This document shows, piece by piece, positions 17,477-46,746 of a stretch of DNA of 64,000 nucleotides. Source of the stretch: Phycisphaeraceae bacterium. Lineage in GTDB: Bacteria > Planctomycetota > Phycisphaerae > Phycisphaerales > UBA1924. The position numbers were made by a program, and so were the translations under genes. Every line of letters begins with the position of its first letter. The stretch's first letter is position 1. The stretch spans positions 1,899,649 through 1,963,648 of the forward strand of contig CP075368.1 of NCBI GenBank assembly GCA_019454185.1. The letters run 5' to 3'. The notes under the pieces were generated by a model. That model had not been told where the DNA came from. It worked only from the letters and a program-made list of their open reading frames with translations, and searched no databases.

Positions 17477-17600
17477 GTACGGGTCTCCGAAAGACAAGTG
17501 TGTCTTGGTATGACGGCCTGATTGGGGTGCCACGGGGCACGACCGAACAAAGACTTACCCGTGCGAGAACGATCGCGCGGTTGGGTGTATGGAGGCCATG

Positions 17601-28482: not shown

Positions 28483-29016
28483 TCATTTTGGCGCTCTGCC
28501 GCCCACGCGGAGTTCGAGCGGCTCTCGGGAAACGACTCTGGTTCCATCGGCGAGTGTGATCTCGCAAGAGAGGCGTGCGGCCTGGGATGGGATTCGGTCT
28601 GTGCCGACGGCGTTGAGGTTGAGTTCGAAGCCGTAGGCCGGGCCGGGCTGTGTGGGGAAGACGGCGCGACTGGTCTCGCGCGGCGCGAACGCCCAGACCC
28701 CGAGCGACTGTCCCTGTTCGCCGACCATACGGAACTGGAAGGTGGCGTCGACGGTCATGGGAAGGGCGAAGCGATTGGTATCGCCAAAGACATAGACGAT
28801 CACGCGGACGGTGTCCACGAAGCCGTTGAGATCTCGGTCCTCGAGCGGCTCGTTGGCGACCAAGACTCGCTCTGGCTTGAGGTCGGAGGGTTGGGTGGGG
28901 AACTGAGATTGGGTCTGCCTGCGTGGGCGCGAAGAATCCGATGTGGCGCAGCCGGTAGCGAGCCCGATCGAGAGCAGGGCAGCGAGAAGGATGGCGAGTC
29001 GGGCGACGGGGATCAT
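28483..29016 (-). CDS. small lipoprotein translationally coupled to the secretin (pilotin candidate)
   Basis: MIPVARLAILLAALLSIGLATGC lipobox. Its ATG overlaps the secretin stop (ATGA at 29013-29016). Confidence 0.7.
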   Translation of the reverse strand: MIPVARLAILLAALLSIGLATGCATSDSSRPRRQTQSQFPTQPSDLKPERVLVANEPLEDRDLNGFVDTVRVIVYVFGDTNRFALPMTVDATFQFRMVGEQGQSLGVWAFAPRETSRAVFPTQPGPAYGFELNLNAVGTDRIPSQAARLSCEITLADGTRVVSREPLELRVGGRAPK

Positions 29017-32000
29017 CGCGGGCGCTCCTCTTTGCGTCCGACGGTCCGGACGCGGTCGCCCTGAGCAGCCGAGGATGAGCCGGGAGCGGCGCCGGACGGG
29101 TTGCTCTCCCGCATTTCGAGCGGGGGCAGAGTGGTCGGAGGTGGGGAGCCATCGTGCATCTCGAGGGCGTCGCGGATCTGGGTGGGATTGGACATGCGTC
29201 CGATCTCGTGGCGTGTCCAGCGGCTCTGGAGATCGATGGAGCTTGGTGAATCGCCTGGCACGACCTTGGGCGTGAGGATGACGAGGAGTTCGGTCTTGAT
29301 GTTCTCGACCTGGGTCGAGCGGAAGGCGTTGCCGATGATGGGGATGTCTCCCAGCAGCGGGACCTTGGTGCGGCGATCTTCCTGGGTGTTCTGGATCAGG
29401 CCGCCTATGACGACCGTCTGTCCGTCCTTGACGGTGACGACGGTGTCGACCTTACGTGTGGTGATGATCGGGGCTTCGAAGTCCTCGGAGATCTGGGTGG
29501 TGCGCTGGCTGACGGAAGAGATCTCGGGGGCGATTTCGAGCCGCACGAACCCGTCGGCGCTGATGGATGGCGTGACGTTGAGGATGATTCCGACATCTCG
29601 ACGTTCGACGTCGGACCGTGTGTTGCCGTTGTCCAATCGTTCGACACCGGTGACGATGGCGATGTCTTCACCGACCTGGATGAGGGCCCGCTCGTTGTTA
29701 TTGACCGTGACCTGGGGTCTGCTCAGCACTTCGAGCTTGCCCTGGACTTCGAGCGCACGGATCAGGACGCTGAAGTCGTTGCTCGAAATGGAGAGGTTCG
29801 CAACGCCGAGAGCGGTCGCAACGCCCGCGCCCGCGCCGAGCGCGCCGAACTGCCACATGTTGCCGCCGAACGGCCCTGCGGTCGAGTCCATGCCCCACTG
29901 GCGTGAGGCATCGAGCGTGACCTCGGCGAGGAGGACCTGGATCATGACCTGGGGCGGAGCGGCGTCGAGTTCCTCGATGATGGACTGGACGATCTCGGCG
30001 TAGCGAGGCGAGGTCGAGACGACGAGCTTGTTGCTTTTGCCGTCGCCGACGACCGTGACTTCCTGCTCGAGCTGGCGTGTCAGCGAGCCGGTCTGAGACG
30101 GGCCGAGTGTGGAGCGGATCTTGGTTGATTCTTCCTGGAAGTATCTGGCGAGGGTGCGTTCGACCTCGTCGGCCTTTGCGTAGCGAAGTTTGTAGACGAG
30201 TTGGAGGCGCTCGGTTGCTTCGATCCCGTCGAGTTCATCGACGACGGAGCGGACCATCTCAAGATACTCGTCGGTTCCTGAGACGAGGAGCGTGTTGGTC
30301 CGGGCGTCGATCGTGATCGAGAGCTCCTTGCGAGTGTCGGGAATGGGTGTGAGCGTCGTGTTGTTGAACGCGGGCGCGGCGGGATCGCTCTCGCCCGGGG
30401 ATCTCAGATCGGTCTGCGTCGGGACGAGAACGAGACGATCGCCCTGCTGCTGGAGACTGAACAGATCACGGAGGACATCGGCCATGGCGCGGGCGTCGGC
30501 GTTCTTCAGACGGAACCACTCGACACGGCGTGAGCCGGCGGAGGTTGTGTCGAGATCGGCGACGATAGCGGCGATGACTTCCATCACGGCGGGCGGCGCG
30601 GCGACCATCAGCGAGTTGGTGCGCAGATCGGGCGTCATACGGACCTGGTCTCGGATCGCGCCGTCGACAGCGGCCTCCGTGGCCTCGCGGCCGGTGCGTC
30701 CTTCGATCTGGTCGGCGATCTGATCACGGAGGAAACGGATGCGTGTGGCCTGGGTTGCGCCGACGCCTCGGCCGCCGCCGAGCGTGCGGCCGGCGAGTAC
30801 GTTCTCGAGCAGGTTCACGACTTCGAGCGCGTTGGCGGTGCGGAGCTCGAGGCGTCTGACATCCTGAACGGCGGTGACCTCGGCCGACTCCATTCGCTCG
30901 ATGATTCCACGGATGGCGTTGACATCGGATTCAGTGCCGCTGACCACGAGGGCGTTCAGTTGAGCATTTGGAACGACGCTGACGGCGCGTTGGCCACGTC
31001 GGGCGATCTCTTTCTGGACGTAGAGTGCGTTGACGGTGTCGGCGACATCGGCGGCTCTCATCTGTCCGAGCGGGATGAGGGTTGTGCGTTCGGCGCCTGC
31101 GACGGCAGCGGCATCGGCCGTGAGGGAGACGATGAGGTCTTTCACCACGGCGAGGTTCTCGTCGCTGGAGGCGACGATCAGGAGTGAGTTTGCGGCGTCG
31201 GGCTCGATGGAGAACGCGTCCTGCGGCTGCTCGATGGATCCGGCGCGGCGAGCGGCTTCGAGGCGTTCACGCATCAGTCGCTGCACGCGGGGCGCGAGCG
31301 ATGCGACATCGACGCCGGGCACCGGGACGACGTGGAGCCCGACCGCTTCGTTGGTCTCCGACGTGTCGAGGGTCTTGAGGAGGGCTTCAAGGATCGAGAA
31401 GCTGCTCACGCTGGTCGAAGCGATGAGGGAGTTGGTGCGGATATCGGCGGTGACGACGAGGGCGTCTTCGGGGCGCATCGCGCCGGTCGCCTGGCGCTGG
31501 CGGAAGATCTCGGAGGCCATGCTCGCGACACGGGCCGCGTTGGCGTGGTTGAGCGGGAAGAAGCGGACCGAGTTTGCTGCGGCGGCCGGTTCGACGTCGA
31601 GCTGCGCGACGAGTTCGGTGACGATGCGGAGGTTGGAAGCGGAGCCGATCACAACGAGCGCGTTCATCGGGAGCGCGGGCTGGATCACGAGCCCGGTCAT
31701 GGGAGCGAAGAGGTCGCCCTGGACCGAGGCGCGCGGGTCGGCGGGGTCGCGGCCAGAGTCAACGACGCGGAGGCGGGCGATCTGACGCTGGATGCCGAGC
31801 GCCTCGGGTGTGCCGGCGAGGCCCTGGACGAGCGTCCGCCGAAGCAGATCGGCCATGGCGTTGGCATCCGCGTGCTTGAGCTGGAGGATGGTTGGCTCGA
31901 TCCAACTGGTGGCCTCGGTGCTGTCGAGATCTCGGATGAGGACTTCGACGAGCGCGACGGCCTCTTCGCGGCCGGCAACGACGAGTGTGTTGGTTCGATC

Positions 32001-35000
32001 ATCGACGGCGAGGGCGATCTCTCCGGCGAGTGCCCTGCCGGTTGCGGTGGTCGGGAGACCCTGTCTGGCCGTCCCGGGGAGCCGGCGCAGTGCCTCGCCC
32101 TGACGGAAGAGTGTGTCGACGACGGTGCGGGCTCGCACCGCCGAAGCGTTCTCGAGCGCGAACATGCGGATCACGACCGCGTCGCCGGTGGCGAGGGTGT
32201 CGAGCGTGTCGATCACAGCGCGGACCGCTTCGACGTTGCCGGGCGTGGAGGCAACCAGAATCGTGTTGGCTTCAGTGTCAGGGATGAGGCGGATCGGCTT
32301 GGAGAGATCGAGTTTGAGCGGGTCTTTGCCGACACCCTCTCGGATCACGCTGAGTCTTCTGACCTGCTCGGCGATGGCCCGGGCGGGCCCTGTCTGGCTC
32401 GCCTGTTCGGCGGGATTGAGCATGAGTCTCAGGGTATTGACGAGTTGGTTGGCGCCCGCGATGCGGAGACGCACGATGCCGACGGCCTGATCGGCTTCGA
32501 CGGGATCGGAATCGATCTGTCTGATGAGGCCGCTGACGATGCGGGCGTCGGCGGGACCGGCGACAACTGCGATCGCTTGGCGTGTGGTCAGGGCAACGGT
32601 TGTGACGGGCTCGGAGACGATGCCGGGGCGATCGGACGGCTGTGCGCCGGAGATGCCGAGCTGGTCGAGCGTGCGCTTGATATCAGCGGGAGACGTGTTG
32701 GTGAGATCGACGATCGAGACGACCTGGCCGAGCCCGGGAGTGATGCTCTCTCCGTCGGCGGTGCCGAGCGCGGGTGTGTCGAGTTCCTTGATGGTTGTCT
32801 GGATCTGCTCGAAGAGTCGCTGGCTTGAGGCGATGACGAGGGCGTTCGCGGTACGATCGATCTCGACGGCGAGTGTCTCACGATTCTGCTGCGCGACGGG
32901 CGTGAAGGTGGCGAGGATCGTCTGACGGAGGCGAGCCGCGGGAACGTGCTCGAGTTTGAGAACTCTTGTCGCGAGGCGTGTGACATCGGCCTGCCCCTGG
33001 AGCGCCTCGGCGAGGGCCTTGACCTGGGTGAACTGCGTGTCGTCGCAGCGGACGATGAGGGAGTTGCTGGCCTCGTCGCCGACGACGACCAGTGCCCTGG
33101 GATTGGCGTTTCTGCCTGCACCGGATGATGCGGCGAAGACTTCTCGGATCGAGTTGGCGACTGCGGTCGCGCTGCCGCCCCTGAGGGGGACGACACGTGC
33201 CTCCGGCAGGCGGAGGGAATCCGGCTCGTCGAGGCGTGCCACGATGCCACGGATGCGGTCCATGTAGCGTTTGCCGGCAAAGACGACGAGGGAGTTGGTC
33301 TGGATCTCCGGCGCGACGCTGGGGATGCCCTCTTCATCGACGAGCAGCGAAGGAGCAGCGGACTCTCCCGCGCGGGCGTTGGCCCCGCGATTGCGCGATT
33401 CTTCGACGCGGAGGCGTCGTGCTTCGAGTTGCTCCTGAACGATGGCGCGGAAGCCCTCGTTGATGGCGCGGGCGACACCTGTCGCATCGGCGAAGCGGAG
33501 CGGCATCACCTCCAACTGACGGGAGCGGTCGTAGTCCTCGGTATCGAGTTTCTTGAGGAGCGATCGGATGCCCTCCCACTGGGTCGGCTCGGCGCTGACG
33601 ACGAGGGAGTTGGAGGCGGGATCGGCGACGATCGTGACGTTGCGTGCACCTGGGCTTGTGGCCTCCGGGGCGGAGCGGCCGTAGAACATGCCGAGCGCCT
33701 TGGAGGCCTGCTCTGCATCGGCGAAATCGAGCTTGACGAACTCGGTCGTGCGTGTCGTTGAAGCGGGGACGTCGAGGGCCTTGATCATGGCCTCGATCTC
33801 GTCGATCTGATCGGCCGGTGCGGCGATGGAGATGGCGTTCTCGGTCGCGGAGTAGTCGAGGTTCACGGGTGTTTCGCCGGGAACCCGGGGGCGGTTTCGG
33901 AGCAGTTCGTTCATGGATGCCCAGACGCGATCGGCAACGGCGTGCTCGAGCGTTACCCTCTTGAACGAAGCGATGGTTCGGGCGGGCTGCTCGTCGAGCT
34001 TCTTGACCTGATCGATGACGTACTGGATTGCTTCGGGGGAGCCCGAGAGCACGATCGAGTTGCTGCGCTCGACCGGCGTGACGGTCACGCGGAGGGTCTG
34101 CGGGAGGGCGGCACGAAGCGCGTTCGCGACCTCGGTCGCGCGGGCGGACTCAAGCTTGACCGTTGCGAGCGTCGCCCCGCCATCGGTCGGCGGCGTGTCG
34201 AGTTGTCGGACGAGATCGGCGATCTGCGTCTGCAGGGTTGTGGGCGCGGAGACGATGAGGGTGCCGGTGCTCGGTTGGGGCGTGACGATCACCTGATCTT
34301 CAGCGCGTCCGCTTCGGGGGAACATGGAGCGGATGGTGGATGCGGCATCCTGTGCGGTTGCGTTGCGAACGGTGTAGGCCTCGATGGAGCGGTCGGCACC
34401 GAGTTCGGGCTGGTCGATCTGCGCGACGAGGTCACGCAAGAGCTTCATGCTTTCCACATCGCCGGAGGCGATGATGACGTTCCCCTCGGGAGAACCGAGG
34501 ATTGAGAAGCTATCGGCGCGAAGCCCCTGGGCCTGGTTCCTGGCTGCGAAGAAACGCTGGAGACTGGCCGCGGCGCGCTCGGCCGAGGCGTGCTCGAGCC
34601 GGATCGTTTCGATCGTCGCGCCTGGACCGCCGACATCGAGGTCGGCGATGTACTTGGCGGCGGCTTCGACGCGATCATTCTTGCCGACGAGAACGACGGC
34701 CCGCCTCAGACGATCGATCTCGACCGTGACTCCGTCGGGATCAGGGCCACGCCACGGGCGCCAGCCGGGCGTCGCCATGGCACGCTCGATGACCGACTTG
34801 ATCGATGCCAGATCAGCGGATTGCACGGCGACCGCCTTGACCGCTACCGCGCCGGCTTCGCCCGGCGGAACATCGAGCAAACGCACGATGCCCTCGACGG
34901 TCTCGATGGTCTCCTGGCGGCCCATGATCACGATGGAGTTCGTGCGCTCGTTCGGTTCAAGGTAGAAACGATCTTTGTCATTCTGGCCCGCGCGGCCGGA

Positions 35001-38000
35001 GATTCGCTCCCACTGCATCTCGCCGGCGAGATTCTGCAGCGTCGGCCCGATGTCCATAGCCCGCGCGTTCTTGAGTTCGATGACCTTGAAGGCAAAGTCG
35101 CGGGATGCCGCGGGATTGTCCATGGAGGCGGCGAGTTCGAGCGCTTCTTTGATTTCGTCGGGGGTGCCGGTGGCAAGGAGCGAGCCGGAGCGATCGTCTC
35201 CGACAAACTGGGCACGGACCTGCGTCGCGCCGGGTGTGCCCTGGCGTCTGGCATCGAAGAGCCGCTGGAGGGTCGAGGCGATCTCGGTGGGCCTGGCGTT
35301 GTCGAGCGTCAAGCGCTGGATGGCGAGGCGATCGCCGCTGGATCCCTGATCGAGCAGGGAGACAAATCGCTCAACGATGGGCATGGCTTCAACCGGGCCG
35401 GCCACGATCAGCGATGCGCCACCCGGGCTTGCGACGACACGGATTGCGCCGGGCTCGATGGTTGCGAGCGTGTCGGTACCCGGCGTGTCTGCGCCGGGAA
35501 GGGACCATTGCATGGCTCGAACGCGTCTGGCCTGGATGCCGCGGGGCGCGGCGCTGACGAGGTCGTTGACTGCCTGAACGGCCTGAGCGGCGGTCATGGA
35601 TTGGAGGGGGAGGACGCGGAGGGTCATCGTCGGCCCACCTCGTTGGTGGATCATGGAACCGATGAGTTCGCCGACGACCGCGAAGTCTGTGTCATTCGAC
35701 CAGACGATGAGGGCCCCGCCGCTCGGATCGGGAGCGACAGACACCGAGCCGGAGAAGCCGCTGGGATTCTCGATGCCGGATCGCCCGATGCGAGCGATGG
35801 TCTGGTTGACGATCGCGGCGACCGAGTTGGCATCGATCGCATCGGGGAGTGTGATGATGCGGACCTTGCCGGGCTCTGAGGGCAGACTGCGTTCGAGCTG
35901 GGCGGCGAGCGCGGCGACACGGTCGGTCAGTCGAGGGGGACCGACGACGATTAGAGAGTTTGTTGCGGGATCGACGCCGATGGTGAGGCCGCCGGTGGAC
36001 TCTTCGGGTTCGTTCGAGACCGAGGGCTGGCCGAGTGCGGCGATGGCCAGCGCGCGGGCGAGGAAGGGCATGGTTTGAAGATCAGGAGGGACGTCGTGAC
36101 GGGGTGCTGCGTTGCTTGAGGGCTTTGTGGCCGGCATGTCGGGCGTTTCGCGGCCAGCGGCACCGGATCTCTTCAGGAGCTCTTCGGAGGAGATGACTTC
36201 GACGGTGAGGCCGCCTCGGTCTTCGAGCAGGCGCTTCAGGGTCTCGGCCATGAGCGCGGCATCGGCTCTTGATCGATCGACCGGGATCATCCGGACCTGT
36301 CGGCTTGAGGCGAGCGCGGCCTGGTCGAGTTGCTTCACAAGGGACTCGATCAACTTCATCTGATCGGGCGTCGCCCTGACGATGAGGGAGTTGCTCTGGC
36401 GGTCGACGCGAAGGGTCGGCGCGGGCCCCTGATCGTTCTGCTCGCCGATGACTTCGCCGATGCTGACGGCAAGCTCGGCGGCGTCCGCACCGTGGAGCGT
36501 GATGACGCGCACGACGCTCGACGTGGAGTCGGTTTCGGGCTTTACGTCGAGTTCGGTGATCATCTGCTCGGCGAGGGTCAGGGTGGCGAGAGGGCCGCTG
36601 ACGACGACCGCGTTGAGGCGTTTCTCTGCGGCGACGCGGATCTCGGCTTCGATCTTGCCGCCACTCTGGAGCAGGGCCTGGCCGCGCTGCCATTCGGGGA
36701 GCATTCTGAGGAGGGATTCCTTCCTCAGAACCTGCTCGACGAGGGGTGCGACCTGTTCTGCGCGGGCATTCTTCAGGAAGACGGTTCGAACGCCTGCGCC
36801 ATCGCCTCGACCGGCGGTGTCCATGGATTCGATGAGCTGGGCGGCACGAGCGAGCTGTGCGGCGCTGCCCGCGACGAGGATGGTGTTTCCGGAGGGTTCG
36901 CCGGAGACGGATGCGGGTTGTTCGCCGGGCATGAGTGTTCCGGCGAGTGCGGCGCGGACGGCGTCGGCGACGGTTTGTGCGGAACCCTCGGTGAGGCGGA
37001 AGACGCGGACATCGATCGGGCCTGTCTGTGCGGGACGATCGAAGGCCGAGATGAGTTCATCGGCGATCGGCATGAGGAGACTGGGGCCGCTGAGCACGAG
37101 CCGGTTGAAGCGGGTCTCGGCCCGGACGCTGGGCATGGAGAGGGCGAGCCCGGCTCGCTCGGCGCGGAGGAGATCCTCCGGCCATCTCGAGCGATCGAGG
37201 AGCATGGGCTGGACCATCTGTGCGACCGAACTGGCGTCGGAGTGCTTGAGCTCGAGGATTCTGACCTCGCTCGCGGGCATCGCGATGGATTGCTCGTCGC
37301 GCTCTTTCAGAAGGCGCAATGCTTCTTCGACCTGTGTCTTTGTGCCGAGGGCGAGGATCGCTCCTGAGCGTGGCTCGATGGACAACTCGAGGGGTGAGCG
37401 TCCCTGTGGGAGCGTGGCGTTGACGATTCTGGCGACCGCGTAGGCCAGCGTGTTCGCATCGCCCCGTGTAGGCGAGTATGACGCGGCGGTGCGCTCCGGA
37501 TCGCTGGCGGGCTGGTCGAGCTTCTCGATGACAGAGCGCGCGAGTTCGAGCGTGCCCTGCGGCGCTGAGACGATGAGCGCGTTTGTTCTGGTTTCTGCCT
37601 GGACACGGATGGTCGGCTTCTTGAACAGATCGGGACGGTTCTGCGCGTAACGAAGTTGGAGGGTCAGGATCCGCGGGTCGGTTTCCTGTTGATCGACGAG
37701 CAACCTCTCCACTGTGGTGGCGATCTGGGCGGCATCCGCGTGCTTGAGGGCGAAGGTCTCAACGGCGGGCGTTTCCGCGCTTGTGGGACGCACATCGAGC
37801 GGCTCGATCAACTCTTCGACCGTGCGGATATCCATCTCGAGGCCGGCGAGAATGATCGAGTTTGCGCCGGGCGCGCCGGTGACGGTGACGCGGCCGCCGC
37901 TGGGGAACTGCATCGAGCCGACGGCCTGGCCCAAGGCGGCAACCGTGGCGTTCACCTCGGCGAAGGCGAGCGGAATGATTTTGACGACGCTGTTGCCCGC

Positions 38001-40292
38001 GCTGGATTGCTCGCTGTCGAGCGTCTTGAGGAGTTCAACCGCGACGGCGTGGACCGACTCCGGCGCGGAGATGATGAGTCTGTTCGAGGGCGCGTCGGGG
38101 ACGATCTCGAGCAACGAGCGCGCGTCGACGCCGAGCGGAAGTTCTCCTCCGCTCTGCGCCTCGCGGATCCGTACGAGGAGCAGCCGCTCAAGAAGAGGTG
38201 AGAGGCGGTCGGCCCTGGCGTGCGCAAGGTCGTACATCTTGAGGGCGGCCGGGCTGACTCTTGCGACGTCGAGTTCGGCGAGGATCTTCTCAACCTGTGG
38301 GAAGATCACTGAAGGACCGGTGACGAGAAGGGTGCGGGTTGTGGGCTCGACGTCGACGAAGACGCCCCTCGCGCCCGAGGGCGCGCCCGCCGGACCGTAG
38401 ATGGTGCCTGCGTCCACCATGCGGCGAATGGTGGCGGCCATGGCGTCGGGCGCAACTCTTTGGACGCGATAGGTGCGCATCTCGGCATCGCCGAGTTTGC
38501 GGGAGTCATCGAGGCGGCGGATCATGGCCTCGATCGCGGGGAACTGCTCGGACTTGGCCCGAACGATCACGCTGGCCACATCGTCGATGGGTTCGATGCT
38601 GGGCGGCACGTATCGCGCGCCGTCGGTGGGTTCGAGGATGGGACGAGCGACTCTGGCGAGTATGGGCGCGAGTTCGCTGGGCTTTGACGAGACCTGGAAG
38701 GTGCGGGTTTCCTGCTCGATGCGTGCGCTGACCTCCGCTGATCGGAGGAGTTCTTCGAACTTTGAGATGCTCTCTCTGGCGCCGATCAGCGTGACGGTGC
38801 GGGATTCGGCCTCGAGTGCGGCGTGGATGGGCCTGGCGAGATCGAACCCCGCGGCCTTGTAGAGATCCTTCGCGCGAGCGAGGACATCGGCTGGGTCGCC
38901 ACCCGCGATGGTGAAGAGCCGCACGTCTCGATCTGCCTCGGAGGGAACATCGAGCCCTGCGATCAGCGCGGCGACGGCGTCAACGTCGGACTCGGGTCCT
39001 GTGACGATGATGGAGGATCGATCGGGCGCTGCGACGTATCGGAGCACCTGCTGCTGGCGAGGCGTGAGCAGCCGGGAGAGGACCGACTCGATCTGATTCG
39101 GGACGACATGCATCAAGCGGATTGTGCGGGCGACACGAGTGATGGGGAGTCCATCGGGCGCGCCGGCGGGATCGAGCGCGCCGATGAGTGCGGTCGCGGT
39201 ACGCAGATAGAGAGGGAGCCCGATGACGGTGACGCGCTGCTGATCCGGCGTTGTGACGACCACGGGCTTGCGGTCTGCAGGGACCTGTGCGTAGACAGCG
39301 TTCAGCGCCTGCTGGGCGAGATCGACCGTGAGCCCCTGGAGGGAGAATGAGATCAGCTGCTGGTCGCCGGATTCGCCGCCGGGTGGAACGTCCAGCAGGC
39401 CAACGAGCTCTTCGACGACGCGTAGGCGGCTCTCGGAGCCGACAGCGATGACTGAGTTCGTGCGCGGATCCGGCTGGATGTTGAGGCCGGCGACGTTGAC
39501 CTCCTCGACGACGCGCTGCTGACCGTCCTTGTCGACGATCACGGTTTTCTGGCGCTCGCCGACGAGGCCGCGGAGTGCGGCGACGACGGAGTCGGCCTTC
39601 GCGTGCTTGAGCGGGAAAAGCTTGAAGGCGGAATCGACGGGGCGGACCTCGTCGATCGAGCGGACGATCTCGCGGATCCTGCGGCACTGCGCCGCGGTCT
39701 CGACGATCACGACCATGTTCTGCGCGGGGATGGGGGTGATGCCGCCGTATGCGCCGAGGAGGGGCTTGATCTGCGCGGCGACGAGTTCGGCCCTTGCGTT
39801 GTTGAGCGGGATCGTGATCGTCAGCATCTCGTCCGGCATGATCTCGGACGGGATTTCGTCACCGGAGACTCTCATCGGTTTGCGAGCGGCGTCTTGGAGC
39901 GAGGAGAGGTAGAGATACTTGCCTTCGCGACGGAGGTGCGCGCCGAACCTCGCCATGTTCAGATTCAGGATGCTGAGCGCTTCGTCAAGGGTGTAAGACT
40001 CTTCGCTGATGAAGGTCAGGGCGGAGGCGGGAACGTCGGTCTCCTTGATGACCGGCAACCCGGACTCGCGCGAGAAGAAGTCGATCACCTGATCGAAGGG
40101 GGAGTCCTTAAAGTTGAAGCGGATGCCGACGGGAGGGACCGGGCTTGCATCCAGCTGCACGACGGGGGGAGCCGCGGGCGGCTGGGCTTCTTGTGCCAAG
40201 GCGAGCGAGTCGAGGTGCCAGATCGAGATCGGGTGCCCTGCGCAGAGCACGAGTGAGGCAATGACCGCGCCAGTGTTGCGTCTCCACGCCAT
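29013..40292 (-). CDS. gspD: giant type II secretion-type secretin (N0 + ~39 N-domain repeats + secretin pore domain)
   Basis: Single ORF. ATG at 40292 preceded by GGAAGGAG. Has a signal peptide, an N0-like IRFNFKDSPFDQVIDFF..., repeated ...R(T/S)N(S/A/T)L(I/V)V...LD units, and a C-terminal secretin domain ...VVIGGLIQNTQEDRRTKVPLLGDIPIIGNAF... Confidence 0.9.
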   Translation of the reverse strand: MAWRRNTGAVIASLVLCAGHPISIWHLDSLALAQEAQPPAAPPVVQLDASPVPPVGIRFNFKDSPFDQVIDFFSRESGLPVIKETDVPASALTFISEESYTLDEALSILNLNMARFGAHLRREGKYLYLSSLQDAARKPMRVSGDEIPSEIMPDEMLTITIPLNNARAELVAAQIKPLLGAYGGITPIPAQNMVVIVETAAQCRRIREIVRSIDEVRPVDSAFKLFPLKHAKADSVVAALRGLVGERQKTVIVDKDGQQRVVEEVNVAGLNIQPDPRTNSVIAVGSESRLRVVEELVGLLDVPPGGESGDQQLISFSLQGLTVDLAQQALNAVYAQVPADRKPVVVTTPDQQRVTVIGLPLYLRTATALIGALDPAGAPDGLPITRVARTIRLMHVVPNQIESVLSRLLTPRQQQVLRYVAAPDRSSIIVTGPESDVDAVAALIAGLDVPSEADRDVRLFTIAGGDPADVLARAKDLYKAAGFDLARPIHAALEAESRTVTLIGARESISKFEELLRSAEVSARIEQETRTFQVSSKPSELAPILARVARPILEPTDGARYVPPSIEPIDDVASVIVRAKSEQFPAIEAMIRRLDDSRKLGDAEMRTYRVQRVAPDAMAATIRRMVDAGTIYGPAGAPSGARGVFVDVEPTTRTLLVTGPSVIFPQVEKILAELDVARVSPAALKMYDLAHARADRLSPLLERLLLVRIREAQSGGELPLGVDARSLLEIVPDAPSNRLIISAPESVHAVAVELLKTLDSEQSSAGNSVVKIIPLAFAEVNATVAALGQAVGSMQFPSGGRVTVTGAPGANSIILAGLEMDIRTVEELIEPLDVRPTSAETPAVETFALKHADAAQIATTVERLLVDQQETDPRILTLQLRYAQNRPDLFKKPTIRVQAETRTNALIVSAPQGTLELARSVIEKLDQPASDPERTAASYSPTRGDANTLAYAVARIVNATLPQGRSPLELSIEPRSGAILALGTKTQVEEALRLLKERDEQSIAMPASEVRILELKHSDASSVAQMVQPMLLDRSRWPEDLLRAERAGLALSMPSVRAETRFNRLVLSGPSLLMPIADELISAFDRPAQTGPIDVRVFRLTEGSAQTVADAVRAALAGTLMPGEQPASVSGEPSGNTILVAGSAAQLARAAQLIESMDTAGRGDGAGVRTVFLKNARAEQVAPLVEQVLRKESLLRMLPEWQRGQALLQSGGKIEAEIRVAAEKRLNAVVVSGPLATLTLAEQMITELDVKPETDSTSSVVRVITLHGADAAELAVSIGEVIGEQNDQGPAPTLRVDRQSNSLIVRATPDQMKLIESLVKQLDQAALASSRQVRMIPVDRSRADAALMAETLKRLLEDRGGLTVEVISSEELLKRSGAAGRETPDMPATKPSSNAAPRHDVPPDLQTMPFLARALAIAALGQPSVSNEPEESTGGLTIGVDPATNSLIVVGPPRLTDRVAALAAQLERSLPSEPGKVRIITLPDAIDANSVAAIVNQTIARIGRSGIENPSGFSGSVSVAPDPSGGALIVWSNDTDFAVVGELIGSMIHQRGGPTMTLRVLPLQSMTAAQAVQAVNDLVSAAPRGIQARRVRAMQWSLPGADTPGTDTLATIEPGAIRVVASPGGASLIVAGPVEAMPIVERFVSLLDQGSSGDRLAIQRLTLDNARPTEIASTLQRLFDARRQGTPGATQVRAQFVGDDRSGSLLATGTPDEIKEALELAASMDNPAASRDFAFKVIELKNARAMDIGPTLQNLAGEMQWERISGRAGQNDKDRFYLEPNERTNSIVIMGRQETIETVEGIVRLLDVPPGEAGAVAVKAVAVQSADLASIKSVIERAMATPGWRPWRGPDPDGVTVEIDRLRRAVVLVGKNDRVEAAAKYIADLDVGGPGATIETIRLEHASAERAAASLQRFFAARNQAQGLRADSFSILGSPEGNVIIASGDVESMKLLRDLVAQIDQPELGADRSIEAYTVRNATAQDAASTIRSMFPRSGRAEDQVIVTPQPSTGTLIVSAPTTLQTQIADLVRQLDTPPTDGGATLATVKLESARATEVANALRAALPQTLRVTVTPVERSNSIVLSGSPEAIQYVIDQVKKLDEQPARTIASFKRVTLEHAVADRVWASMNELLRNRPRVPGETPVNLDYSATENAISIAAPADQIDEIEAMIKALDVPASTTRTTEFVKLDFADAEQASKALGMFYGRSAPEATSPGARNVTIVADPASNSLVVSAEPTQWEGIRSLLKKLDTEDYDRSRQLEVMPLRFADATGVARAINEGFRAIVQEQLEARRLRVEESRNRGANARAGESAAPSLLVDEEGIPSVAPEIQTNSLVVFAGKRYMDRIRGIVARLDEPDSLRLPEARVVPLRGGSATAVANSIREVFAASSGAGRNANPRALVVVGDEASNSLIVRCDDTQFTQVKALAEALQGQADVTRLATRVLKLEHVPAARLRQTILATFTPVAQQNRETLAVEIDRTANALVIASSQRLFEQIQTTIKELDTPALGTADGESITPGLGQVVSIVDLTNTSPADIKRTLDQLGISGAQPSDRPGIVSEPVTTVALTTRQAIAVVAGPADARIVSGLIRQIDSDPVEADQAVGIVRLRIAGANQLVNTLRLMLNPAEQASQTGPARAIAEQVRRLSVIREGVGKDPLKLDLSKPIRLIPDTEANTILVASTPGNVEAVRAVIDTLDTLATGDAVVIRMFALENASAVRARTVVDTLFRQGEALRRLPGTARQGLPTTATGRALAGEIALAVDDRTNTLVVAGREEAVALVEVLIRDLDSTEATSWIEPTILQLKHADANAMADLLRRTLVQGLAGTPEALGIQRQIARLRVVDSGRDPADPRASVQGDLFAPMTGLVIQPALPMNALVVIGSASNLRIVTELVAQLDVEPAAAANSVRFFPLNHANAARVASMASEIFRQRQATGAMRPEDALVVTADIRTNSLIASTSVSSFSILEALLKTLDTSETNEAVGLHVVPVPGVDVASLAPRVQRLMRERLEAARRAGSIEQPQDAFSIEPDAANSLLIVASSDENLAVVKDLIVSLTADAAAVAGAERTTLIPLGQMRAADVADTVNALYVQKEIARRGQRAVSVVPNAQLNALVVSGTESDVNAIRGIIERMESAEVTAVQDVRRLELRTANALEVVNLLENVLAGRTLGGGRGVGATQATRIRFLRDQIADQIEGRTGREATEAAVDGAIRDQVRMTPDLRTNSLMVAAPPAVMEVIAAIVADLDTTSAGSRRVEWFRLKNADARAMADVLRDLFSLQQQGDRLVLVPTQTDLRSPGESDPAAPAFNNTTLTPIPDTRKELSITIDARTNTLLVSGTDEYLEMVRSVVDELDGIEATERLQLVYKLRYAKADEVERTLARYFQEESTKIRSTLGPSQTGSLTRQLEQEVTVVGDGKSNKLVVSTSPRYAEIVQSIIEELDAAPPQVMIQVLLAEVTLDASRQWGMDSTAGPFGGNMWQFGALGAGAGVATALGVANLSISSNDFSVLIRALEVQGKLEVLSRPQVTVNNNERALIQVGEDIAIVTGVERLDNGNTRSDVERRDVGIILNVTPSISADGFVRLEIAPEISSVSQRTTQISEDFEAPIITTRKVDTVVTVKDGQTVVIGGLIQNTQEDRRTKVPLLGDIPIIGNAFRSTQVENIKTELLVILTPKVVPGDSPSSIDLQSRWTRHEIGRMSNPTQIRDALEMHDGSPPPTTLPPLEMRESNPSGAAPGSSSAAQGDRVRTVGRKEERPR
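29958..39827 (-). repeat. protein-level tandem array of ~39 secretin N-domain-like units inside the secretin gene
   Basis: Counted by eye from the recurring strand-helix-strand-strand-helix signature. The units are diverged at DNA level. Confidence 0.8.
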
Positions 40293-40347
40293 AGAACCCG
40301 CTCCTTCCGTGTGAGCGGTCGATTGTCCGACCACCCGCACAGTCTAC

Positions 40348-41325
40348 CTATTCCTTCCTGATCCGGTCTGCCAGTGTCGCGCCTGTCCGAACTGTCCACA
40401 TCGTGCCTTCGAGCTCGAAGACGGCCTCTTCGCCAGCCCCCGAAACGAGCGTAGCGCCGAGCACGGCGGCACCCGGTGCGAGCACTCGCCGCTCGCCATC
40501 CCTCATGTTGAGCATGAGGGCCTCGACGCCGCGCCGTCCGGAGATGACCCCTGTCAGTTTCCATTCCGCGAAGGGCGGGGCTGGTTCCGGTGGTTTGGGG
40601 GGGGCCGCCGCGACGGCTCGGTTGGGTGTTCTGGGGGGAGGCGTCGGCACTTTGAAGACGTTCTTCGCTGTGATCAAGGCGATTGCCTGCACGCCTGACT
40701 CGCCCGGAGCGATGATGGAGGGATCGTTCGGGTCGTCCGTCGAGAGATCGGGCATCCAGATGGTCGCGACGTCGAGTTTCAGTTCGAACCTCTCTCGTTC
40801 GCGTCCGACGGGACGGATGTTGAGGGTGTCGATTCGATGGATCCACGGCTGGCAGGCATACGTCGCGAGCGCTTGCAGGACCTGCGGCAGTGTGCCCGTA
40901 CCTTTCACCTGAGCGCGAACCACAGAGAAGTTTGGAGACTTCTTGATGCGATCCTGCATCAGACGTTCCATGTTTCTGGCAACGGCGGCGGGGTTTCGCT
41001 CGTCTTTCGGGGGTGTGCTGCTGACGACGACATCGGTCAGGCCTGCATCCTGCCCCACCCGACTCAACCCCGTGCGCAGTCGATGATCGACACGATCGAA
41101 CTGTTTGCCGAGGGTTGTGGAGGCCATCGCGGCGAGGCGGTCGCGTACTGCTTGCTGGCGCTGGAGTTCTTTCTCGTAGGCAACCTGGGCGCGCCGCAGG
41201 TCGGCTGTCTCTTTGAGCAAGGCATCGCGTTCGTTCGCGTACATCGCGCGGTATCCGTACCAGGATGCGCCGGCGAACATGATCGCGGCAAGCACGAGTA
41301 GCGTTGGCTTGAGGAAGCGTCTCAT
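40348..41325 (-). CDS. T2SS assembly protein, GspM/PilO-like N-part fused to a GspC-HR/PilP-like C-terminal domain
   Basis: N-terminal TM helix, coiled coil, alpha/beta domain, Pro-rich linker, then KLTGVISGRRGVEALMLNMRDGERRVLAPGAAVLGATLVSG... Assignment by architecture and position. Confidence 0.5.
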   Translation of the reverse strand: MRRFLKPTLLVLAAIMFAGASWYGYRAMYANERDALLKETADLRRAQVAYEKELQRQQAVRDRLAAMASTTLGKQFDRVDHRLRTGLSRVGQDAGLTDVVVSSTPPKDERNPAAVARNMERLMQDRIKKSPNFSVVRAQVKGTGTLPQVLQALATYACQPWIHRIDTLNIRPVGRERERFELKLDVATIWMPDLSTDDPNDPSIIAPGESGVQAIALITAKNVFKVPTPPPRTPNRAVAAAPPKPPEPAPPFAEWKLTGVISGRRGVEALMLNMRDGERRVLAPGAAVLGATLVSGAGEEAVFELEGTMWTVRTGATLADRIRKE

Positions 41326-42926
41326 GTGCCGCGTCCTCCCGGTGCGGGCGAGCTTCCGTTCGAGGCCGGCCTTGCATCGGGCTTTGCGGCGGGAGATGAA
41401 GGGGCGGAGTCTGATGGCGTTCGGCGGGATGTGACGAGATCGAAACTGAATCGGTCTTCGGTGTCCGCCGATTGGTTCACGACCTTGTACAAATCTCCAC
41501 GCACCAGGCGCCCGCGGAGATCGAGCGCGATCTCACGTTTGATGACCTTGCCGGAGAGCGAGAAGACGGCCTGCTGGCGACTTGTCCACTGCGCACCGGC
41601 GACGGAGCGATCGCGCGGAACGAACTCGACATCGGCGCTCATGATGGCGGAGACCTCGTCGAGTTGGCCGTCTTTCGGATCGGGCATCTGATCGCTGAGC
41701 CACGTGAGATGTCCGAGCCAGTCCATCCCCGCGCCAGCCCATCTCTCGACGCTTTCTGCCCTTACCTCCTGCACGAGCAGGTCGGCGTACTGCGTGCCCG
41801 CACGATTCATGGCGGCTCGGGCTGTGTCCCGGCTCTCGCGAAACTCGGCGAGTCTCATCTGGGCAACAACCCATGCGCCGCCAAGCATGATGATGAGCGA
41901 GAATGTGCCTGCCAGGGCGAGTTGGCGACGCCTGGCCTTCGGATCCGGCCCTTTCTTGACGACCGCGAAATCGAAAGCTTCGTGAGACTCGGCGCGGCAG
42001 ACGCCGATGCCGATGATCGACTGGAACGCGCCGGTTGCGGCATCGGCGGGTTGCTTGGTATCGGGCTCGATCAGGACGCCGGGAGGGAGCGATGCGACTC
42101 GAACCTGGCTCGCGAGCGAGGCGTCGGCGCTCCGAGCCCGAACCCGCTCGGCTAGATCCGCATCGCCGAAGAGGAGAAGTGATTCTGGAACAGAACCTTC
42201 GCGTCCGCTGGTCCAACCCATCCACGTTCTTCTCGCCTCGACCACGACACGTGCGGCGTACTGCTCCAAGCCACCGTCATCTTGAGGCGCGCCGATCTCT
42301 ACCGCGCGTGCGGTTGCGATCTGGCCGCTCTCAAGGACGAGGAACTCGGCCTTTGAGCGGCTGAGCGCGATGCAGAGCGCGGGTCCGTCGTGACGAGCGG
42401 CGATGCCGCGTGCGATGGCGGAGATTCCGGAGATCGCGAGCTGGATCCCCCCGACACGAGCACCTGCTGCACCGGCAACGGCCCGGTACCAGGCGAGCCG
42501 ATCTGCCGGCAGTGCGGCGGCGACAACGGTGGCGGCACCGCTCTCATCGCCGGATGTATCAACACGGATGAAGTCGATACCCGCGCCATCGATGGCAACG
42601 GTCATCTGGCGTGAGAGAGAGAGTCGGACGAGCCCGGCCAGTTCGGTCTGGTTCAGGCCGGCTCCGCCGGGGATATTCATCCGTTTGAGAATGACCTCTT
42701 CGCGACCCACGACGAAGACAACGCGGCGGAGTGAGAGGCGGCTCTCGGCGGCGACGCGCCCCAACCACGCTCCGATCGCGGCGGCATCGCCACGGTCGAG
42801 ACCCTCCGGTGCTGGAGACTCGATGAGTTCGCGCACGACAACTTTGCCGGATGCCACGGACATGCGTGCGCCAAGGAGGCGCGACCCATCGAACTCGATC
42901 GCCAGCATGTCGGATCTTCGTGGCAT
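41322..42926 (-). CDS. T2SS GspL-like protein (PilM-type actin-like domain + TM + PilN-like domain)
   Basis: MLAIEFDGSRLLGARM... N-domain, central TM helix LALAGTFSLIIMLGGAWVVAQM, periplasmic coiled-coil domain. ATGA overlap with the next gene. Confidence 0.55.
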   Translation of the reverse strand: MPRRSDMLAIEFDGSRLLGARMSVASGKVVVRELIESPAPEGLDRGDAAAIGAWLGRVAAESRLSLRRVVFVVGREEVILKRMNIPGGAGLNQTELAGLVRLSLSRQMTVAIDGAGIDFIRVDTSGDESGAATVVAAALPADRLAWYRAVAGAAGARVGGIQLAISGISAIARGIAARHDGPALCIALSRSKAEFLVLESGQIATARAVEIGAPQDDGGLEQYAARVVVEARRTWMGWTSGREGSVPESLLLFGDADLAERVRARSADASLASQVRVASLPPGVLIEPDTKQPADAATGAFQSIIGIGVCRAESHEAFDFAVVKKGPDPKARRRQLALAGTFSLIIMLGGAWVVAQMRLAEFRESRDTARAAMNRAGTQYADLLVQEVRAESVERWAGAGMDWLGHLTWLSDQMPDPKDGQLDEVSAIMSADVEFVPRDRSVAGAQWTSRQQAVFSLSGKVIKREIALDLRGRLVRGDLYKVVNQSADTEDRFSFDLVTSRRTPSDSAPSSPAAKPDARPASNGSSPAPGGRGT

Positions 42927-42932: not shown

Positions 42933-44342
42933 TCATCCTTTCGCTGACCATCGGCCCCTGCGCTGTCCCGAGGAGTCTCCGCCTTGTTGGGGCGAAGGTG
43001 AAACCCCTCGGCTTGTGCCGTTGCGCGTCCCGCTTGGTCTGCTCACAGACCGAGCATCGTCGCCGGGTTGTGCTGCTTCGGCAAGCGACGCGCCGAGCGA
43101 AGATTCGGGTGGGGTGCTGGATTGTTCCTCGTCCGCAACGAGTGTCTGAGCGAGCAGCGTGTCGATGCCCTCGGACGCACCGTCGAAGGTGACGTCCCGA
43201 AGGTATGACACCCTCACTCGATCGGCGGAACAATCGATGATCGCATCCAACGCCGCACGGGAGAGCACGATCGGTTCATCGTTTGAGGACGATGCCCTCG
43301 TGATCTCACCGACGATTCTGACACGCCAGTGCAGCGTGCGCGTGGTGATCCACGGGAGTGCCCGTGCCATGTCGGAGGAAGAGACGAGCCGCGCATCCAG
43401 AGGCCACGTCGGGCTTCTCGTGCGATCCGCGCCCAAGCGGCGTGCCGCTTCATGGATCTCCTTTGCCCGGCCCTCGAATCCGGGGATGCACCCGAGTACG
43501 GCCTCCGGCGCGCGGGAGATATCAACGAGTCCCTCGCGGCCAGCACCCTGTTCGCCGAAGGCGAGTTCGTCCCAGAGTGCGGCCCACACTGAGGGTGAGA
43601 TACTGAGTCGATCGAGGGCCCGGGCCACGTCTTGAGCGGATGAGAGGTCCACATTCGCGCCGGTCAATCGCTCGACAGTCTCGGTGACCGCGTTGTCGGC
43701 GGCGAGCCGACGATCGAAGGACCCGGCTGCGGCGTCCCAGCGTGCTCGCTTCCGTCCGGAAGACGCGCGATCGCCCACGCCGATGCCGAGATCGGGATCG
43801 AGCGAGTACGCGGTCGCGAGCGATTCGAGCGAGACTCCTCCGATCGCGCCTGCCTCGTCGCGAGGATCGATGCCGACGAGGCGAAGGTCCTCGATGCTTG
43901 TCAGTCCGCCGCGGGTCGCGAGCGACCTGATCGATTGTGCTCGCTCATCGCCGAGGCCGGAGAGGCGGGCGAGCATGGGTGCCGTCGCCACATTGAGGTT
44001 GAGTTTCGCGGCCTCGCTCCTGGCAAGGGCGCTCGGCGGGGAGCCTCCGTCGGACCCAATCTGCTCTAACCTCACTCGGGCCGTGGTCGAGCCATCGGTG
44101 TAAATGGTCCATTCCTCGGTGAGTTCCGGGTCGCCTCCTTCGATGAGATCGTTGCGCTGGGTTTCAAGCTCTGCCATGACGCCGAGCACGCCTGACCAAG
44201 CGGCGGCCCTGGCTTCGCGCCTGAGCAGCGAGCCCCTTGCGCCTGACGCGGTGGCGTCTGATTGGTCCAGCGCGATCATGGCGGTGAGCGCGCCGAGCAC
44301 GATCACGAGCAGCACCGAGAGCAGCGCGATTGCCCGCTTCAT
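42933..44342 (-). CDS. gspK: GspK-like minor pseudopilin
   Basis: MKRAIALLSVLLVIVLGALTAMIAL N-terminus without Glu5, large body with a helix-hairpin-helix-like LNLNVATAPMLARLSGLG... Sits after the three small pseudopilin genes. Confidence 0.65.
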   Translation of the reverse strand: MKRAIALLSVLLVIVLGALTAMIALDQSDATASGARGSLLRREARAAAWSGVLGVMAELETQRNDLIEGGDPELTEEWTIYTDGSTTARVRLEQIGSDGGSPPSALARSEAAKLNLNVATAPMLARLSGLGDERAQSIRSLATRGGLTSIEDLRLVGIDPRDEAGAIGGVSLESLATAYSLDPDLGIGVGDRASSGRKRARWDAAAGSFDRRLAADNAVTETVERLTGANVDLSSAQDVARALDRLSISPSVWAALWDELAFGEQGAGREGLVDISRAPEAVLGCIPGFEGRAKEIHEAARRLGADRTRSPTWPLDARLVSSSDMARALPWITTRTLHWRVRIVGEITRASSSNDEPIVLSRAALDAIIDCSADRVRVSYLRDVTFDGASEGIDTLLAQTLVADEEQSSTPPESSLGASLAEAAQPGDDARSVSRPSGTRNGTSRGVSPSPQQGGDSSGQRRGRWSAKG

Positions 44343-44926
44343 GCGCCTTCACCTCCGCCATCGGGGATCCGGACGATTCTGCGCCAGAACTCTCCTCGGG
44401 ATGTGGTGACGCTGATCTCGATCGCGGTCGGCATTCTGCCTCGATCGGCGGCGTCGAACGTGTCGTGCCACGCGAAACCGTCCGCGTATCTGAATCGCAG
44501 CTCTCCAACACGTTCGCAGACGGTCGCTCGCATGCGTTCGCCCGAGACGAGCCATCGCTCGGCCTCAACCCTGGCCCCCTGTCCGTCGAAGTTGAATGAG
44601 GATCCCTGGATGTCACGCGGAGATCGTTCGCCGAAGCTGCCTCGCAGCCACACGCCTCGCGAGAGGATTCTGATCGATGTTTCGTCTCCCACAACGCCGG
44701 AGCCCTCGCGCGGATCGGCGGCGACCGCGGTCATGAGATCGGACTCGATCTGGTCCATCATCGCGAGGACTTCGCGAGCGGATGTTGAGATCGCGGTGAC
44801 TCTGGCTCTCTGGTCTCTCGCGCTCCACATGAGCGACATCACCGCGCCCATGAGCAGGAGCAGCAACGCACACGCGACGAGGACCTCGATCACCGTGAAG
44901 CAGCGTGCGGATCTGCGACGGCTCAC
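44339..44926 (-). CDS. minor pseudopilin (GspJ-like by size and order)
   Basis: Class III signal MSRRRSARC/FTVIEVLVA with Glu5 present and Cys at -1. Confidence 0.6.
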   Translation of the reverse strand: MSRRRSARCFTVIEVLVACALLLLLMGAVMSLMWSARDQRARVTAISTSAREVLAMMDQIESDLMTAVAADPREGSGVVGDETSIRILSRGVWLRGSFGERSPRDIQGSSFNFDGQGARVEAERWLVSGERMRATVCERVGELRFRYADGFAWHDTFDAADRGRMPTAIEISVTTSRGEFWRRIVRIPDGGGEGA

Positions 44927-45396
44927 GCGTCACCTCCCTGCCGATCGAGGGGAAGGGCGGCGGCCGGGGCGTTGCCGATGCGCACGATCTGTCTCGCGGT
45001 GTAAATGAGCCGCTCTTCGGTGCCGACCGAGCGCACCACGCCGATCGATACGAGCATGTGGCTACGGAACTGGGTCGGCTCGGTCTCGACGCGTATTCCC
45101 CAGCCGCTCCAGGGCCCGAGCTGCGGGTCGCTTACGCCGGCACCGGGCGGAGGTCCCATCCAGAGCGGAGAGGATTCTTCGATCGGACCGTCGATGGATT
45201 CGGGCTGAACGACGCCGGATTCGATCAGGGAGATCGCGGACCAGGCGAGATCCGCTGCACGAAGGCGTTCGGCGGTGAGCGTGGATCGGTCGAGGGCGTG
45301 ATCGAGAGCTCCGTGGATCGCCAGTCCGGCCATCGCGAAGAGCACGACGGCCAGAAGGAGCTCGAGAAGGATCGCGCCTCGTCTGTTCATCTCCAC
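44923..45396 (-). CDS. minor pseudopilin (GspI-like by size and order)
   Basis: MEMNRRG/AILLELLLAVVLFA, with Glu5 present. Confidence 0.6.
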   Translation of the reverse strand: MEMNRRGAILLELLLAVVLFAMAGLAIHGALDHALDRSTLTAERLRAADLAWSAISLIESGVVQPESIDGPIEESSPLWMGPPPGAGVSDPQLGPWSGWGIRVETEPTQFRSHMLVSIGVVRSVGTEERLIYTARQIVRIGNAPAAALPLDRQGGDA

Positions 45397-46224: not shown

Positions 46225-46746
46225 TCAGCCACCGGGCGGGGGCGGGGGCAATCCCCTTCCGAATCCACCGTCTGCGTCGGCCTCTTCGGCGGCGAAGGCG
46301 TTGATGTCATCGTCCGTCCCGTCCTGCTTGTCCGGTCCGTATGACCACAAGTCGTATTCGCCATCGCGATTCTGGCTCTCGGCCCGATAACCCCACGGGG
46401 AACCCCAGGGGTCTGTGGGCACGGGAGATTCGAGGTACTTGGTCCACCGGGCCTGATCCTCTTCAGACTGGAGGAGTGACTTGTTCCAGAGAACAGCCAA
46501 CCCCTCGTCCTCGGACGGGAAGCGACCGAAGTCGACGTAGAACGCCTTCACACCACCCTTGATGAGACGGATCTGGGTCTCAGCGATGCCCTTCTTGGCC
46601 TTGGCACTCTGTCCGATCAGGGCGAAACCGACGAGGCCGGAGAGCGCGAGAATGATCGCGATCACGATCATCACTTCGATGATGGTGAACCCGCGTCGCG
46701 TGCGACGGCGCGACACCCTTGATCTGGACTCCACTTCCTGGGTCAT
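46225..46746 (-). CDS. gspG: type II secretion major pseudopilin GspG
   Basis: RRG/FTIIEVMIVIAIILALSGLV..., ...DPWGSPWGYR..., ...YDLWSYGPDKQDGTDDDI. Confidence 0.92.
   Translation of the reverse strand: MTQEVESRSRVSRRRTRRGFTIIEVMIVIAIILALSGLVGFALIGQSAKAKKGIAETQIRLIKGGVKAFYVDFGRFPSEDEGLAVLWNKSLLQSEEDQARWTKYLESPVPTDPWGSPWGYRAESQNRDGEYDLWSYGPDKQDGTDDDINAFAAEEADADGGFGRGLPPPPPGG

Follow-up and report, generated by a model that had tools for sequence, protein, structure and literature searches.

A T2SS-type secretin with 39 ring-building-type domains in a Phycisphaeraceae genome, and the widespread family to which it belongs

Secretins are among the best-studied outer-membrane machines of bacteria, and today's models of them assume a periplasmic part of three or four domains, the extreme being the six of Thermus. 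The gene described here encodes many more. It lies in a 64,000-nucleotide stretch from a Phycisphaeraceae bacterium (assembly GCA_019454185.1, contig CP075368.1, positions 1,899,649 to 1,963,648 of the forward strand), which is referred to throughout as the window and has a G+C content of about 65%. Its product is a type II secretion system (T2SS)-type secretin of 3,759 amino acids (aa), consisting of an N0 domain, 39 domains of the ring-building type and a pore, and it is the sole secretin in the window. The protein is not categorically new, as each of its domains is already known. It is encoded alongside a complete-looking T2SS-like set comprising gspE, gspF, gspG, pseudopilin genes and platform genes.

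Architecture of the giant secretin

The gene sits in an uninterrupted open reading frame (ORF) on the minus strand (29013..40340) that counts 3,775 aa from its first GTG. The ATG at 40292 was taken as the start because it follows GGAAGGAG with a spacer of 8 nt, and because residue 1 of a full-length ortholog (P0128; 3,776 aa, 75.5% identity) pairs with residue 1 of the ATG version. The stop codon of the upstream gene, TAG, lies at 40348-40350. The coding sequence is thus 29013..40292, specifying 3,759 aa plus stop, or about 402 kDa. An earlier note, made by a model from the letters and their translations, had reported an intact frame of 3,759 aa (3,775 aa from the first in-frame start) with a signal peptide, an N0-like domain, about 39 N1-N3-type units counted by eye and one C-terminal secretin pore. 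The frame is confirmed, and the domain searches described below support the remaining features, the signal peptide being recognised by sequence reading.

The first 34 residues (40191..40292), MAWRRNTGAVIASLVLCAG...SLALA/QE, resemble a signal peptide in which an n-region, an h-region and an ALA/QE site can be discerned. They are followed by the N0 domain at aa ~57-134 (39891..40124). A phmmer search against the PDB matched aa ~59-220 to solved N0-N1 structures of GspD and XcpQ (E ~1e-6). An AlphaFold2 (AF2) model of aa 51-500, made from an 8-sequence alignment with a mean predicted local distance difference test score (pLDDT) of 73, shows an N0 fold of beta-alpha-beta-beta-alpha-beta-beta topology and then beta-alpha-beta-beta-alpha units. 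When this model was compared with the PDB using Foldseek, XcpQ N0-N1-N2 ranked top (E ~1e-13), followed by GspD, PulD and InvG.

Next comes the array itself, which covers aa 135-3444 (29961..39890). An objective domain count with Pfam, as the earlier note had proposed, gave one Secretin domain and 30 stretches of Secretin_N (PF03958; 1002.5 bits in total). The remaining Pfam matches are weak and fall on KH-type domains, which have the same beta-alpha-beta-beta-alpha topology. A dedicated hidden Markov model (HMM) was built from the second half of the unit (beta2-beta3-alpha2), which is conserved and comprises a strand pair ...xRTNSLIV... and a helix ending LIxxLD. It converged on 34 units at an independent E-value (i-E) below 0.01; a separate search of the gaps added four weaker units, and one further unit was recognised by eye and confirmed in the alignment, which brings the total to 39. 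These units tile the region with no leftover residues, measure 68-142 aa each (median 81), are joined by short linkers and can all be aligned in a single beta-alpha-beta-beta-alpha register. The AF2 model includes units 1, 3 and 4, which the dedicated HMM had caught weakly or partly.

One unit stands out by its length. Unit 16 (aa 1326-1467) is the longest at 142 aa. Its helix 1 is separated from the strand pair by a Pro/Ser/Ala-rich insertion of ~60 aa that contains a short hydrophobic stretch, MPFLARALAIAALG.

The pore domain occupies aa 3445-3700 (29193..29960). Pfam finds a single Secretin domain (PF00263) at aa 3513-3678, scoring 168.5 bits against a cut-off of 27.5. In searches of the PDB with the last N domain and the pore, the T2SS GspD structure 5wq7 was closest (E 1.6e-35), followed by PilQ (~1e-24) and the secretins of type III secretion systems (1e-11 to 1e-16). 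The NCBIfam equivalog for GspD, TIGR02517, scores 982 bits against a cut-off of 351, a total that is inflated by the repeats; its best stretch, aa 3240-3680, spans positions 147-592 of the 600 in the profile. The NCBIfam models for PilQ and SctC likewise pass their cut-offs, since each repeat adds to the score. The AMIN domain, a mark of PilQ, has no Pfam match in the protein. The last residues (aa 3701-3759; 29016..29192) form a Pro/Ser/Gly-rich tail without a family match in Pfam or NCBIfam, in which no S domain, the part of GspD that a pilotin lipoprotein binds, is recognisable. Antisense to this 3' end, ARAGORN called a tRNA-Glu(TTC) of 89 nt (29086-29174, plus strand), which has no Rfam match and is probably a false positive.

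The closest characterised relatives are the GspD proteins of the T2SS, represented by 5wq7 (Escherichia coli K12), 6hcg (Klebsiella PulD) and 5wln/4e9j (Pseudomonas XcpQ). They provide the best PDB sequence matches for both ends of the protein and the best fold match for its N-terminus, and share with it the N0 domain, Secretin_N domains of the N1-N3 type and a C-terminal secretin domain. The difference is one of number. GspD has three N domains after N0 and a length of 600-700 aa, so the canonical N0-N1-N2-N3 layout is replaced here by N0 and 39 N domains, in keeping with the roughly ten-fold excess that the earlier note had estimated. The giant secretin also departs from GspD in its Pro/Ser-rich tail without a recognised S domain and in the conserved lipoprotein gene on its 3' side, which is unrelated.

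Characterised secretins have three to six periplasmic ring domains, and the PilQ of Thermus is the largest characterised case that was found. Thermus thermophilus PilQ is a 757-aa protein forming six stacked rings (N0-N5) in a complex 350 Å long, which spans most of a wide periplasm by means of beta-alpha-beta-beta-alpha rings; this complex is flexible, with variable spacing between its rings (PMC5745081). Thermus PilQ provides the characterised precedent for the addition of N-domain rings, with six rings compared with N0 and 39 units in the giant secretin. However, Thermus PilQ serves a type IV pilus and DNA uptake, whereas the giant secretin has a pore nearer to that of T2SS GspD and an operon with a GspG-type pseudopilin.

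Age and distribution of the array

The units of the array have diverged strongly from one another. Pairwise protein identity between them averages 20% and reaches 38% at most, neighbouring units are no more similar than distant ones, and no super-repeat periodicity in unit similarity was found across the 39 units. At the DNA level, the gene contains no repeats longer than 50 nt, the longer families (43-50 nt) are all at most 76% identical, and there are no tandem arrays beyond trivial ones of 6-15 nt. Comparison with the closest metagenomic relative (L001) gave a ratio of nonsynonymous to synonymous substitution rates (dN/dS) of 0.17-0.22 for three array segments and of 0.11 for the pore domain, at a dS of ~0.8-1.0; purifying selection thus acts on the protein from end to end.

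The order of the units is conserved as well. In eight other genomes of Phycisphaerales and Planctomycetota, every unit of the window protein best matches the unit at the corresponding position, 80-94% of the steps are collinear, and the collinear matches have a mean identity of 36-51%. In Verrucomicrobiota loci, collinearity is kept only over the last ~9 units. Low identity between units, purifying selection and position-by-position orthology together indicate that the array is an ancient, ordered structure whose units are not interchangeable. The old, selected architecture that the earlier note had suggested, citing a lack of long identical DNA repeats, is therefore upheld on both counts.

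Some variation exists within this order. Four relatives (L004, L005, L053, L011) have ~225 extra residues, equivalent to 2-3 units, between their matches to units 19 and 20, so units have been gained or lost within an otherwise collinear array. Conservation also differs between units: units 10 (aa 835-928), 26 (aa 2177-2251) and 32 (aa 2700-2791) share 66-76% identity between orthologs, and the others ~40-55%. These three may have special roles in the stack, for instance as gates, as hinges or as sites where partners bind.

To survey the family, a pore-domain profile was run against one genome per GTDB species, which identified 80 loci. The best-matching loci were those of Phycisphaerales. At about 30 of the 80, the ORF bearing the pore domain fills the entire 10-kb upstream flank (>3,650 aa) and contains 22-40 strong N-domain matches; these include Phycisphaerales, other Planctomycetota and Verrucomicrobiota such as Limisphaerales. 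Others have complete ORFs of 2,400-3,655 aa. Shorter versions occur in Planctomycetia, with 900-1,500 aa in Fuerstiella, Planctomyces and Pirellulales; those of Fimbriiglobus have ~2,050-2,120 aa. The ORFs at four Fimbriiglobus sp. loci (L062-L064, L080), which range from at least 1,600 to 2,121 aa, carry a secretin domain and only 4-5 N-domain HMM matches; the remainder of these proteins may consist of very diverged N domains or of other modules.

An exhaustive HMMER search with the N-terminal 330 aa against 1.84 billion cluster representatives (50% identity) returned 155 matches at E<1e-30. Among the best 148 of these 155, on which the length statistics of the family are based, 98 carry both the giant-secretin N-terminus and a C-terminal secretin domain, with a median length of 3,992 aa. 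Most of these complete secretins (90) have at least 3,000 aa, 48 have at least 4,000 and six at least 5,000; the largest reaches 5,532 aa and shows 50 strong N-domain matches. By this measure, the window protein is nothing out of the ordinary within a large family, and its length falls slightly short of the median. The uncharacterised giant secretins of Planctomycetota and Verrucomicrobiota have the same architecture, N-terminus and pore, with no essential difference from it. Those of Phycisphaerales are collinear with it unit by unit and share the lipoprotein gene and other neighbouring genes. One neighbouring gene in the window is 96% identical to a gene from a Phycisphaeraceae metagenome-assembled genome, which, with the best-matching loci, bears out the link to Planctomycetes that the earlier note had drawn. 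Secretins of 3,000-5,500 aa are commonplace in sequence data from Planctomycetota and Verrucomicrobiota. What deserves attention is the family more than this single gene.

The size of these proteins is easily missed. Database labels of the relatives read 'type II secretion system protein D' or 'secretin N-terminal domain-containing protein', or are absent, and gene callers give many 'partial' fragments of such genes. A word-index search for homologs of the C-terminal 341 aa yielded fragments below 600 aa and nothing longer, which hid the giant relatives; they came to light only in the scan of genome contigs and the exhaustive search of cluster representatives. At two relatives' loci, L001 (JGI 3300056626) and L002 (ENA contig_151083), the secretin gene is broken into 4-6 ORFs, and the 2-oxoglutarate dehydrogenase and ABC genes next to it are in pieces as well. 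Frameshift errors are thus indicated, through which one giant gene comes to resemble several 'partial GspD' genes in databases. Fragmentation and 'partial' labels have probably hidden the family, so that its size was overlooked.

These split genes are also what could be said in favour of an artefact or a dead gene, that is, a repeat expansion in the assembly, a chimeric read-through of several genes or an unexpressed pseudogene. However, because the neighbours are broken up in the same way, sequencing errors are the likely cause of the splits. The ORF in the window is intact, its units are only ~20% identical and it lacks DNA repeats. Intact ORFs above 3,600 aa occur in ~30 independent assemblies, and unit orthology across independently assembled Phycisphaerales genomes likewise excludes an assembly artefact, as do the 90 cluster representatives of 3,000 aa or more. 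A dN/dS of ~0.2 rules out a pseudogene. An origin of this kind is effectively refuted.

The earlier note had also allowed that secretins with more than 30 N domains might prove to be both common and described. They are common, as proteins of 3,000-5,500 aa are widespread, but a search confined to open-access full text yielded no account of secretins whose N domains number in the tens. To our knowledge, there is no other description either. As far as could be told, the family is apparently uncharacterised. In a preprint on giant genes, gspD is mentioned solely because it lies next to other giant genes (10.1101/2023.11.21.568195). The slime-nozzle secretin was considered as an analogue and rejected, those secretins being of normal size (PMC12475490).

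A secretion operon with a mixed platform

The secretin gene is the last large gene in a minus-strand run in which gaps are short or stop and start codons overlap. The run includes the assembly ATPase GspE (46963..48639; T2SSE 431 bits, plus an MshEN domain) and the major pseudopilin GspG (46225..46746; TIGR01710 102.6 bits against a cut-off of 88.85, and Pfam T2SSG). These are followed by a pseudopilin in the GspH position that carries a prepilin N-methylation motif (45387..46070; N_methyl match, start set at MATSRT...) and by a small pseudopilin-like protein in the GspI position (44923..45396), which has an N-terminal hydrophobic segment and no Pfam or NCBIfam match. A GspJ-like minor pseudopilin (44339..44926) matches T2SSJ and N_methyl, both under the cut-off. 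The 469-aa candidate that comes next (42933..44342) has an N-terminal hydrophobic segment and a helix-hairpin-helix region with a weak HHH_3 match, and we infer a GspK-like minor pseudopilin mainly from its position after the GspJ-like gene.

Two platform genes lie between these pseudopilins and the secretin. The first encodes a PilM/GspL-like protein of 534 aa (41322..42926, minus strand) with weak matches to PilM_2 and TIGR01175, a cytoplasmic actin-like domain, one transmembrane segment by sequence reading and a periplasmic domain. The second encodes a bitopic protein of 325 aa (40348..41325, minus strand) with no family match by sequence in Pfam or NCBIfam. In its AF2 model (pLDDT 78), a transmembrane helix is followed by a long helix, then by a ferredoxin-like domain and, at the C-terminus, by a beta domain. 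By Foldseek, the first part corresponds to PilO (3jc8_Oa, E 5.7e-4; 5uvr, target-normalised TM-score 0.69; 2rjz). The last domain corresponds both to PilP (2y4y, target-normalised TM-score 0.58; 2lc4) and to the HR domain of GspC (3oss_C, target-normalised TM-score 0.75, root-mean-square deviation 2.2 Å; 6hcg_e). The protein is therefore predicted to be a single-chain fusion of a PilO/GspM-like part and a PilP/GspC-HR-like part.

Domains of the PilP/GspC-HR type are the inner-membrane partners of the secretin N0 domain in characterised systems, and 3OSS is the complex of GspC with GspD. The predicted presence of such a domain in the 325-aa protein supports a canonical topology, in which N0 would meet the inner-membrane platform while the pore sits in the outer membrane.

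The platform protein GspF (50288..51475; T2SSF 162 bits in two stretches) is encoded on the plus strand, divergently, ~1.6 kb from gspE and ~10 kb upstream of the secretin gene. With a PilM/GspL-like protein and a PilO-PilP-like fusion in place of the classical GspL, GspM and GspC of the T2SS, the platform is of a mixed type that combines type IV pilus-like and T2SS-like features. A gsp-like operon with GspE, GspG and pseudopilins is nevertheless the setting that the giant secretin shares with GspD. No PilT, the retraction ATPase associated with PilQ in type IV pilus systems, was found among the window ORFs that were scanned, a scan that did not take in every ORF.

Directly 3' of the secretin gene lies a gene for a 177-aa lipoprotein with an LATGC lipobox (28483..29016, minus strand). 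Its ATG overlaps the TGA stop of the secretin (ATGA), an arrangement indicative of translational coupling. A lipoprotein gene (150-215 aa) is found at the same place, coupled or immediately 3', at 22 of 32 relatives' loci in both Planctomycetota and Verrucomicrobiota. The loci where it stands just after the secretin stop include L003, L004, L006, L011, L013, L016, L019-L021, L028, L030, L037, L040, L041, L043, L044 and others. The 177-aa protein has no sequence match in Pfam, NCBIfam or the PDB and no similarity to known pilotins. That it is a pilotin-like partner, and maybe a new one, is a reasonable guess and no more.

Possible arrangements of the array in the envelope

Most probably, the protein is a working T2SS secretin whose N domains bridge the distance between outer-membrane pore and inner-membrane platform, ~100 nm or more, be it as a tube of stacked rings or as a flexible tether. 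Several arrangements of the 39 N domains can be envisaged, and an even chance is given to a T2SS-like secretin in which they stack as a long ring conduit that links pore and platform across an enlarged periplasm. The C-terminal domain would form a gated multimeric pore in the outer membrane, as the 12-16-mers of the secretin superfamily do, and N0 would attach to the inner-membrane platform by way of the PilP/GspC-HR-like domain in the 325-aa protein. Between them, the N domains would oligomerise into a stack of rings. At ~3-4 nm per ring, an estimate based on the 350 Å Thermus complex and on general knowledge of GspD structures, the conduit would be ~120-160 nm long, and a 15-mer of the protein would weigh ~6 MDa. 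Such a conduit might carry a pseudopilus, cargo or both through the enlarged periplasm of bacteria of the Planctomycetes-Verrucomicrobia-Chlamydiae (PVC) group. Purifying selection and the individual, collinear orthology of the units fit a fixed place for each unit in an ordered structure. The distribution of the family would also fit an array that bridges an unusually wide or variable distance between the membranes, as Planctomycetota and Verrucomicrobiota are the phyla in which an enlarged periplasm or a compartmentalised cell plan has been under discussion (PMC3422733).

Several points weigh against a continuous conduit. That all 39 units form rings is an assumption based on homology, and the predicted TM-score (pTM) of the AF2 model is 0.47, leaving the geometry between its domains uncertain. 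The Foldseek E-values for the PilP/GspC-HR-like domain, through which N0 would dock, are weak (0.01-0.5), although both the probabilities and the target-normalised TM-scores reach high values. The relatives differ greatly in array length, with proteins of ~2,400 to 5,532 aa. Furthermore, a rigid tube of 120-160 nm would be several times as long as an ordinary periplasm is wide, and would need an equally long pseudopilus or another principle of transport.

In the main rival reading, which leaves identity and topology unchanged, only the pore-proximal N domains would form ordered rings, and the rest would act as flexible beads on a string or as a periplasmic scaffold for partners. One chain per protomer would then keep the pore tied to the platform as the width of the periplasm changes where the cytoplasmic membrane is invaginated. 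The distal N domains of characterised secretins are poorly ordered, the rings of Thermus PilQ are variably spaced in a flexible complex (PMC5745081), and the AF2 model likewise combines confident domains with uncertain geometry between them. A tether would also tolerate the roughly two-fold variation in array length more easily than a precisely matched tube. However, position-specific conservation of units over long evolutionary distances and uniform purifying selection suggest specific contacts instead of a generic spacer, and the ring-building fold and short linkers are kept in all units, so that a flexible array of this kind seems possible but doubtful. An array folded back into a compact, multi-layered chamber or cage under the pore, such as a thick-walled vestibule or a peptidoglycan-embedded anchor, would span an ordinary periplasm and do away with any conduit or pseudopilus longer than 100 nm; some carriers among the Verrucomicrobiota may, by assumption, have envelopes of ordinary width. 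The short linkers and the absence of a higher-order periodicity that would hint at paired or layered super-repeats make this less likely, and no known secretin packs its N domains in such a way, judging from the structures of GspD, PilQ and InvG. We regard it as improbable.

The stacked-ring conduit can be extended to the family as a whole, in the form of trans-periplasmic tubes of 100-200 nm with ~15-fold symmetry and a mass of at least 6 MDa, whose number of N domains is tuned to the width of the periplasm. This is a tentative and rather unlikely proposal. If true, it would provide a molecular basis for long-distance secretion or a fibre conduit through the PVC envelope, and N-domain count could be used as a genomic ruler of envelope architecture. 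Planctomycetes show envelope-spanning pits and fibres, of which such tubes would possibly be a part.

A widespread family whose members carry 30-50 ring-building domains or more, the periplasmic module having expanded ten-fold or more, lies far outside current models of secretion systems. It raises questions about how a pseudopilus or cargo crosses such a distance, how the cell exports and assembles a protomer of 400-550 kDa, and what keeps the two membranes coupled where the periplasm is enlarged or variable. It also makes the PVC cell plan, long a matter of argument, open to testing by way of a defined gene.

Elsewhere in the window, two Cpn60/GroEL paralogs (10442-12055 and 15794-17533, both on the minus strand) lie 3.7 kb apart, with a sulfotransferase gene between them (14041-15615) and a DnaJ gene nearby (8427-9596). 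Outside the T2SS operon, a further gene (57155-58225, minus strand) encodes a 356-aa protein with a prepilin N-methylation motif.

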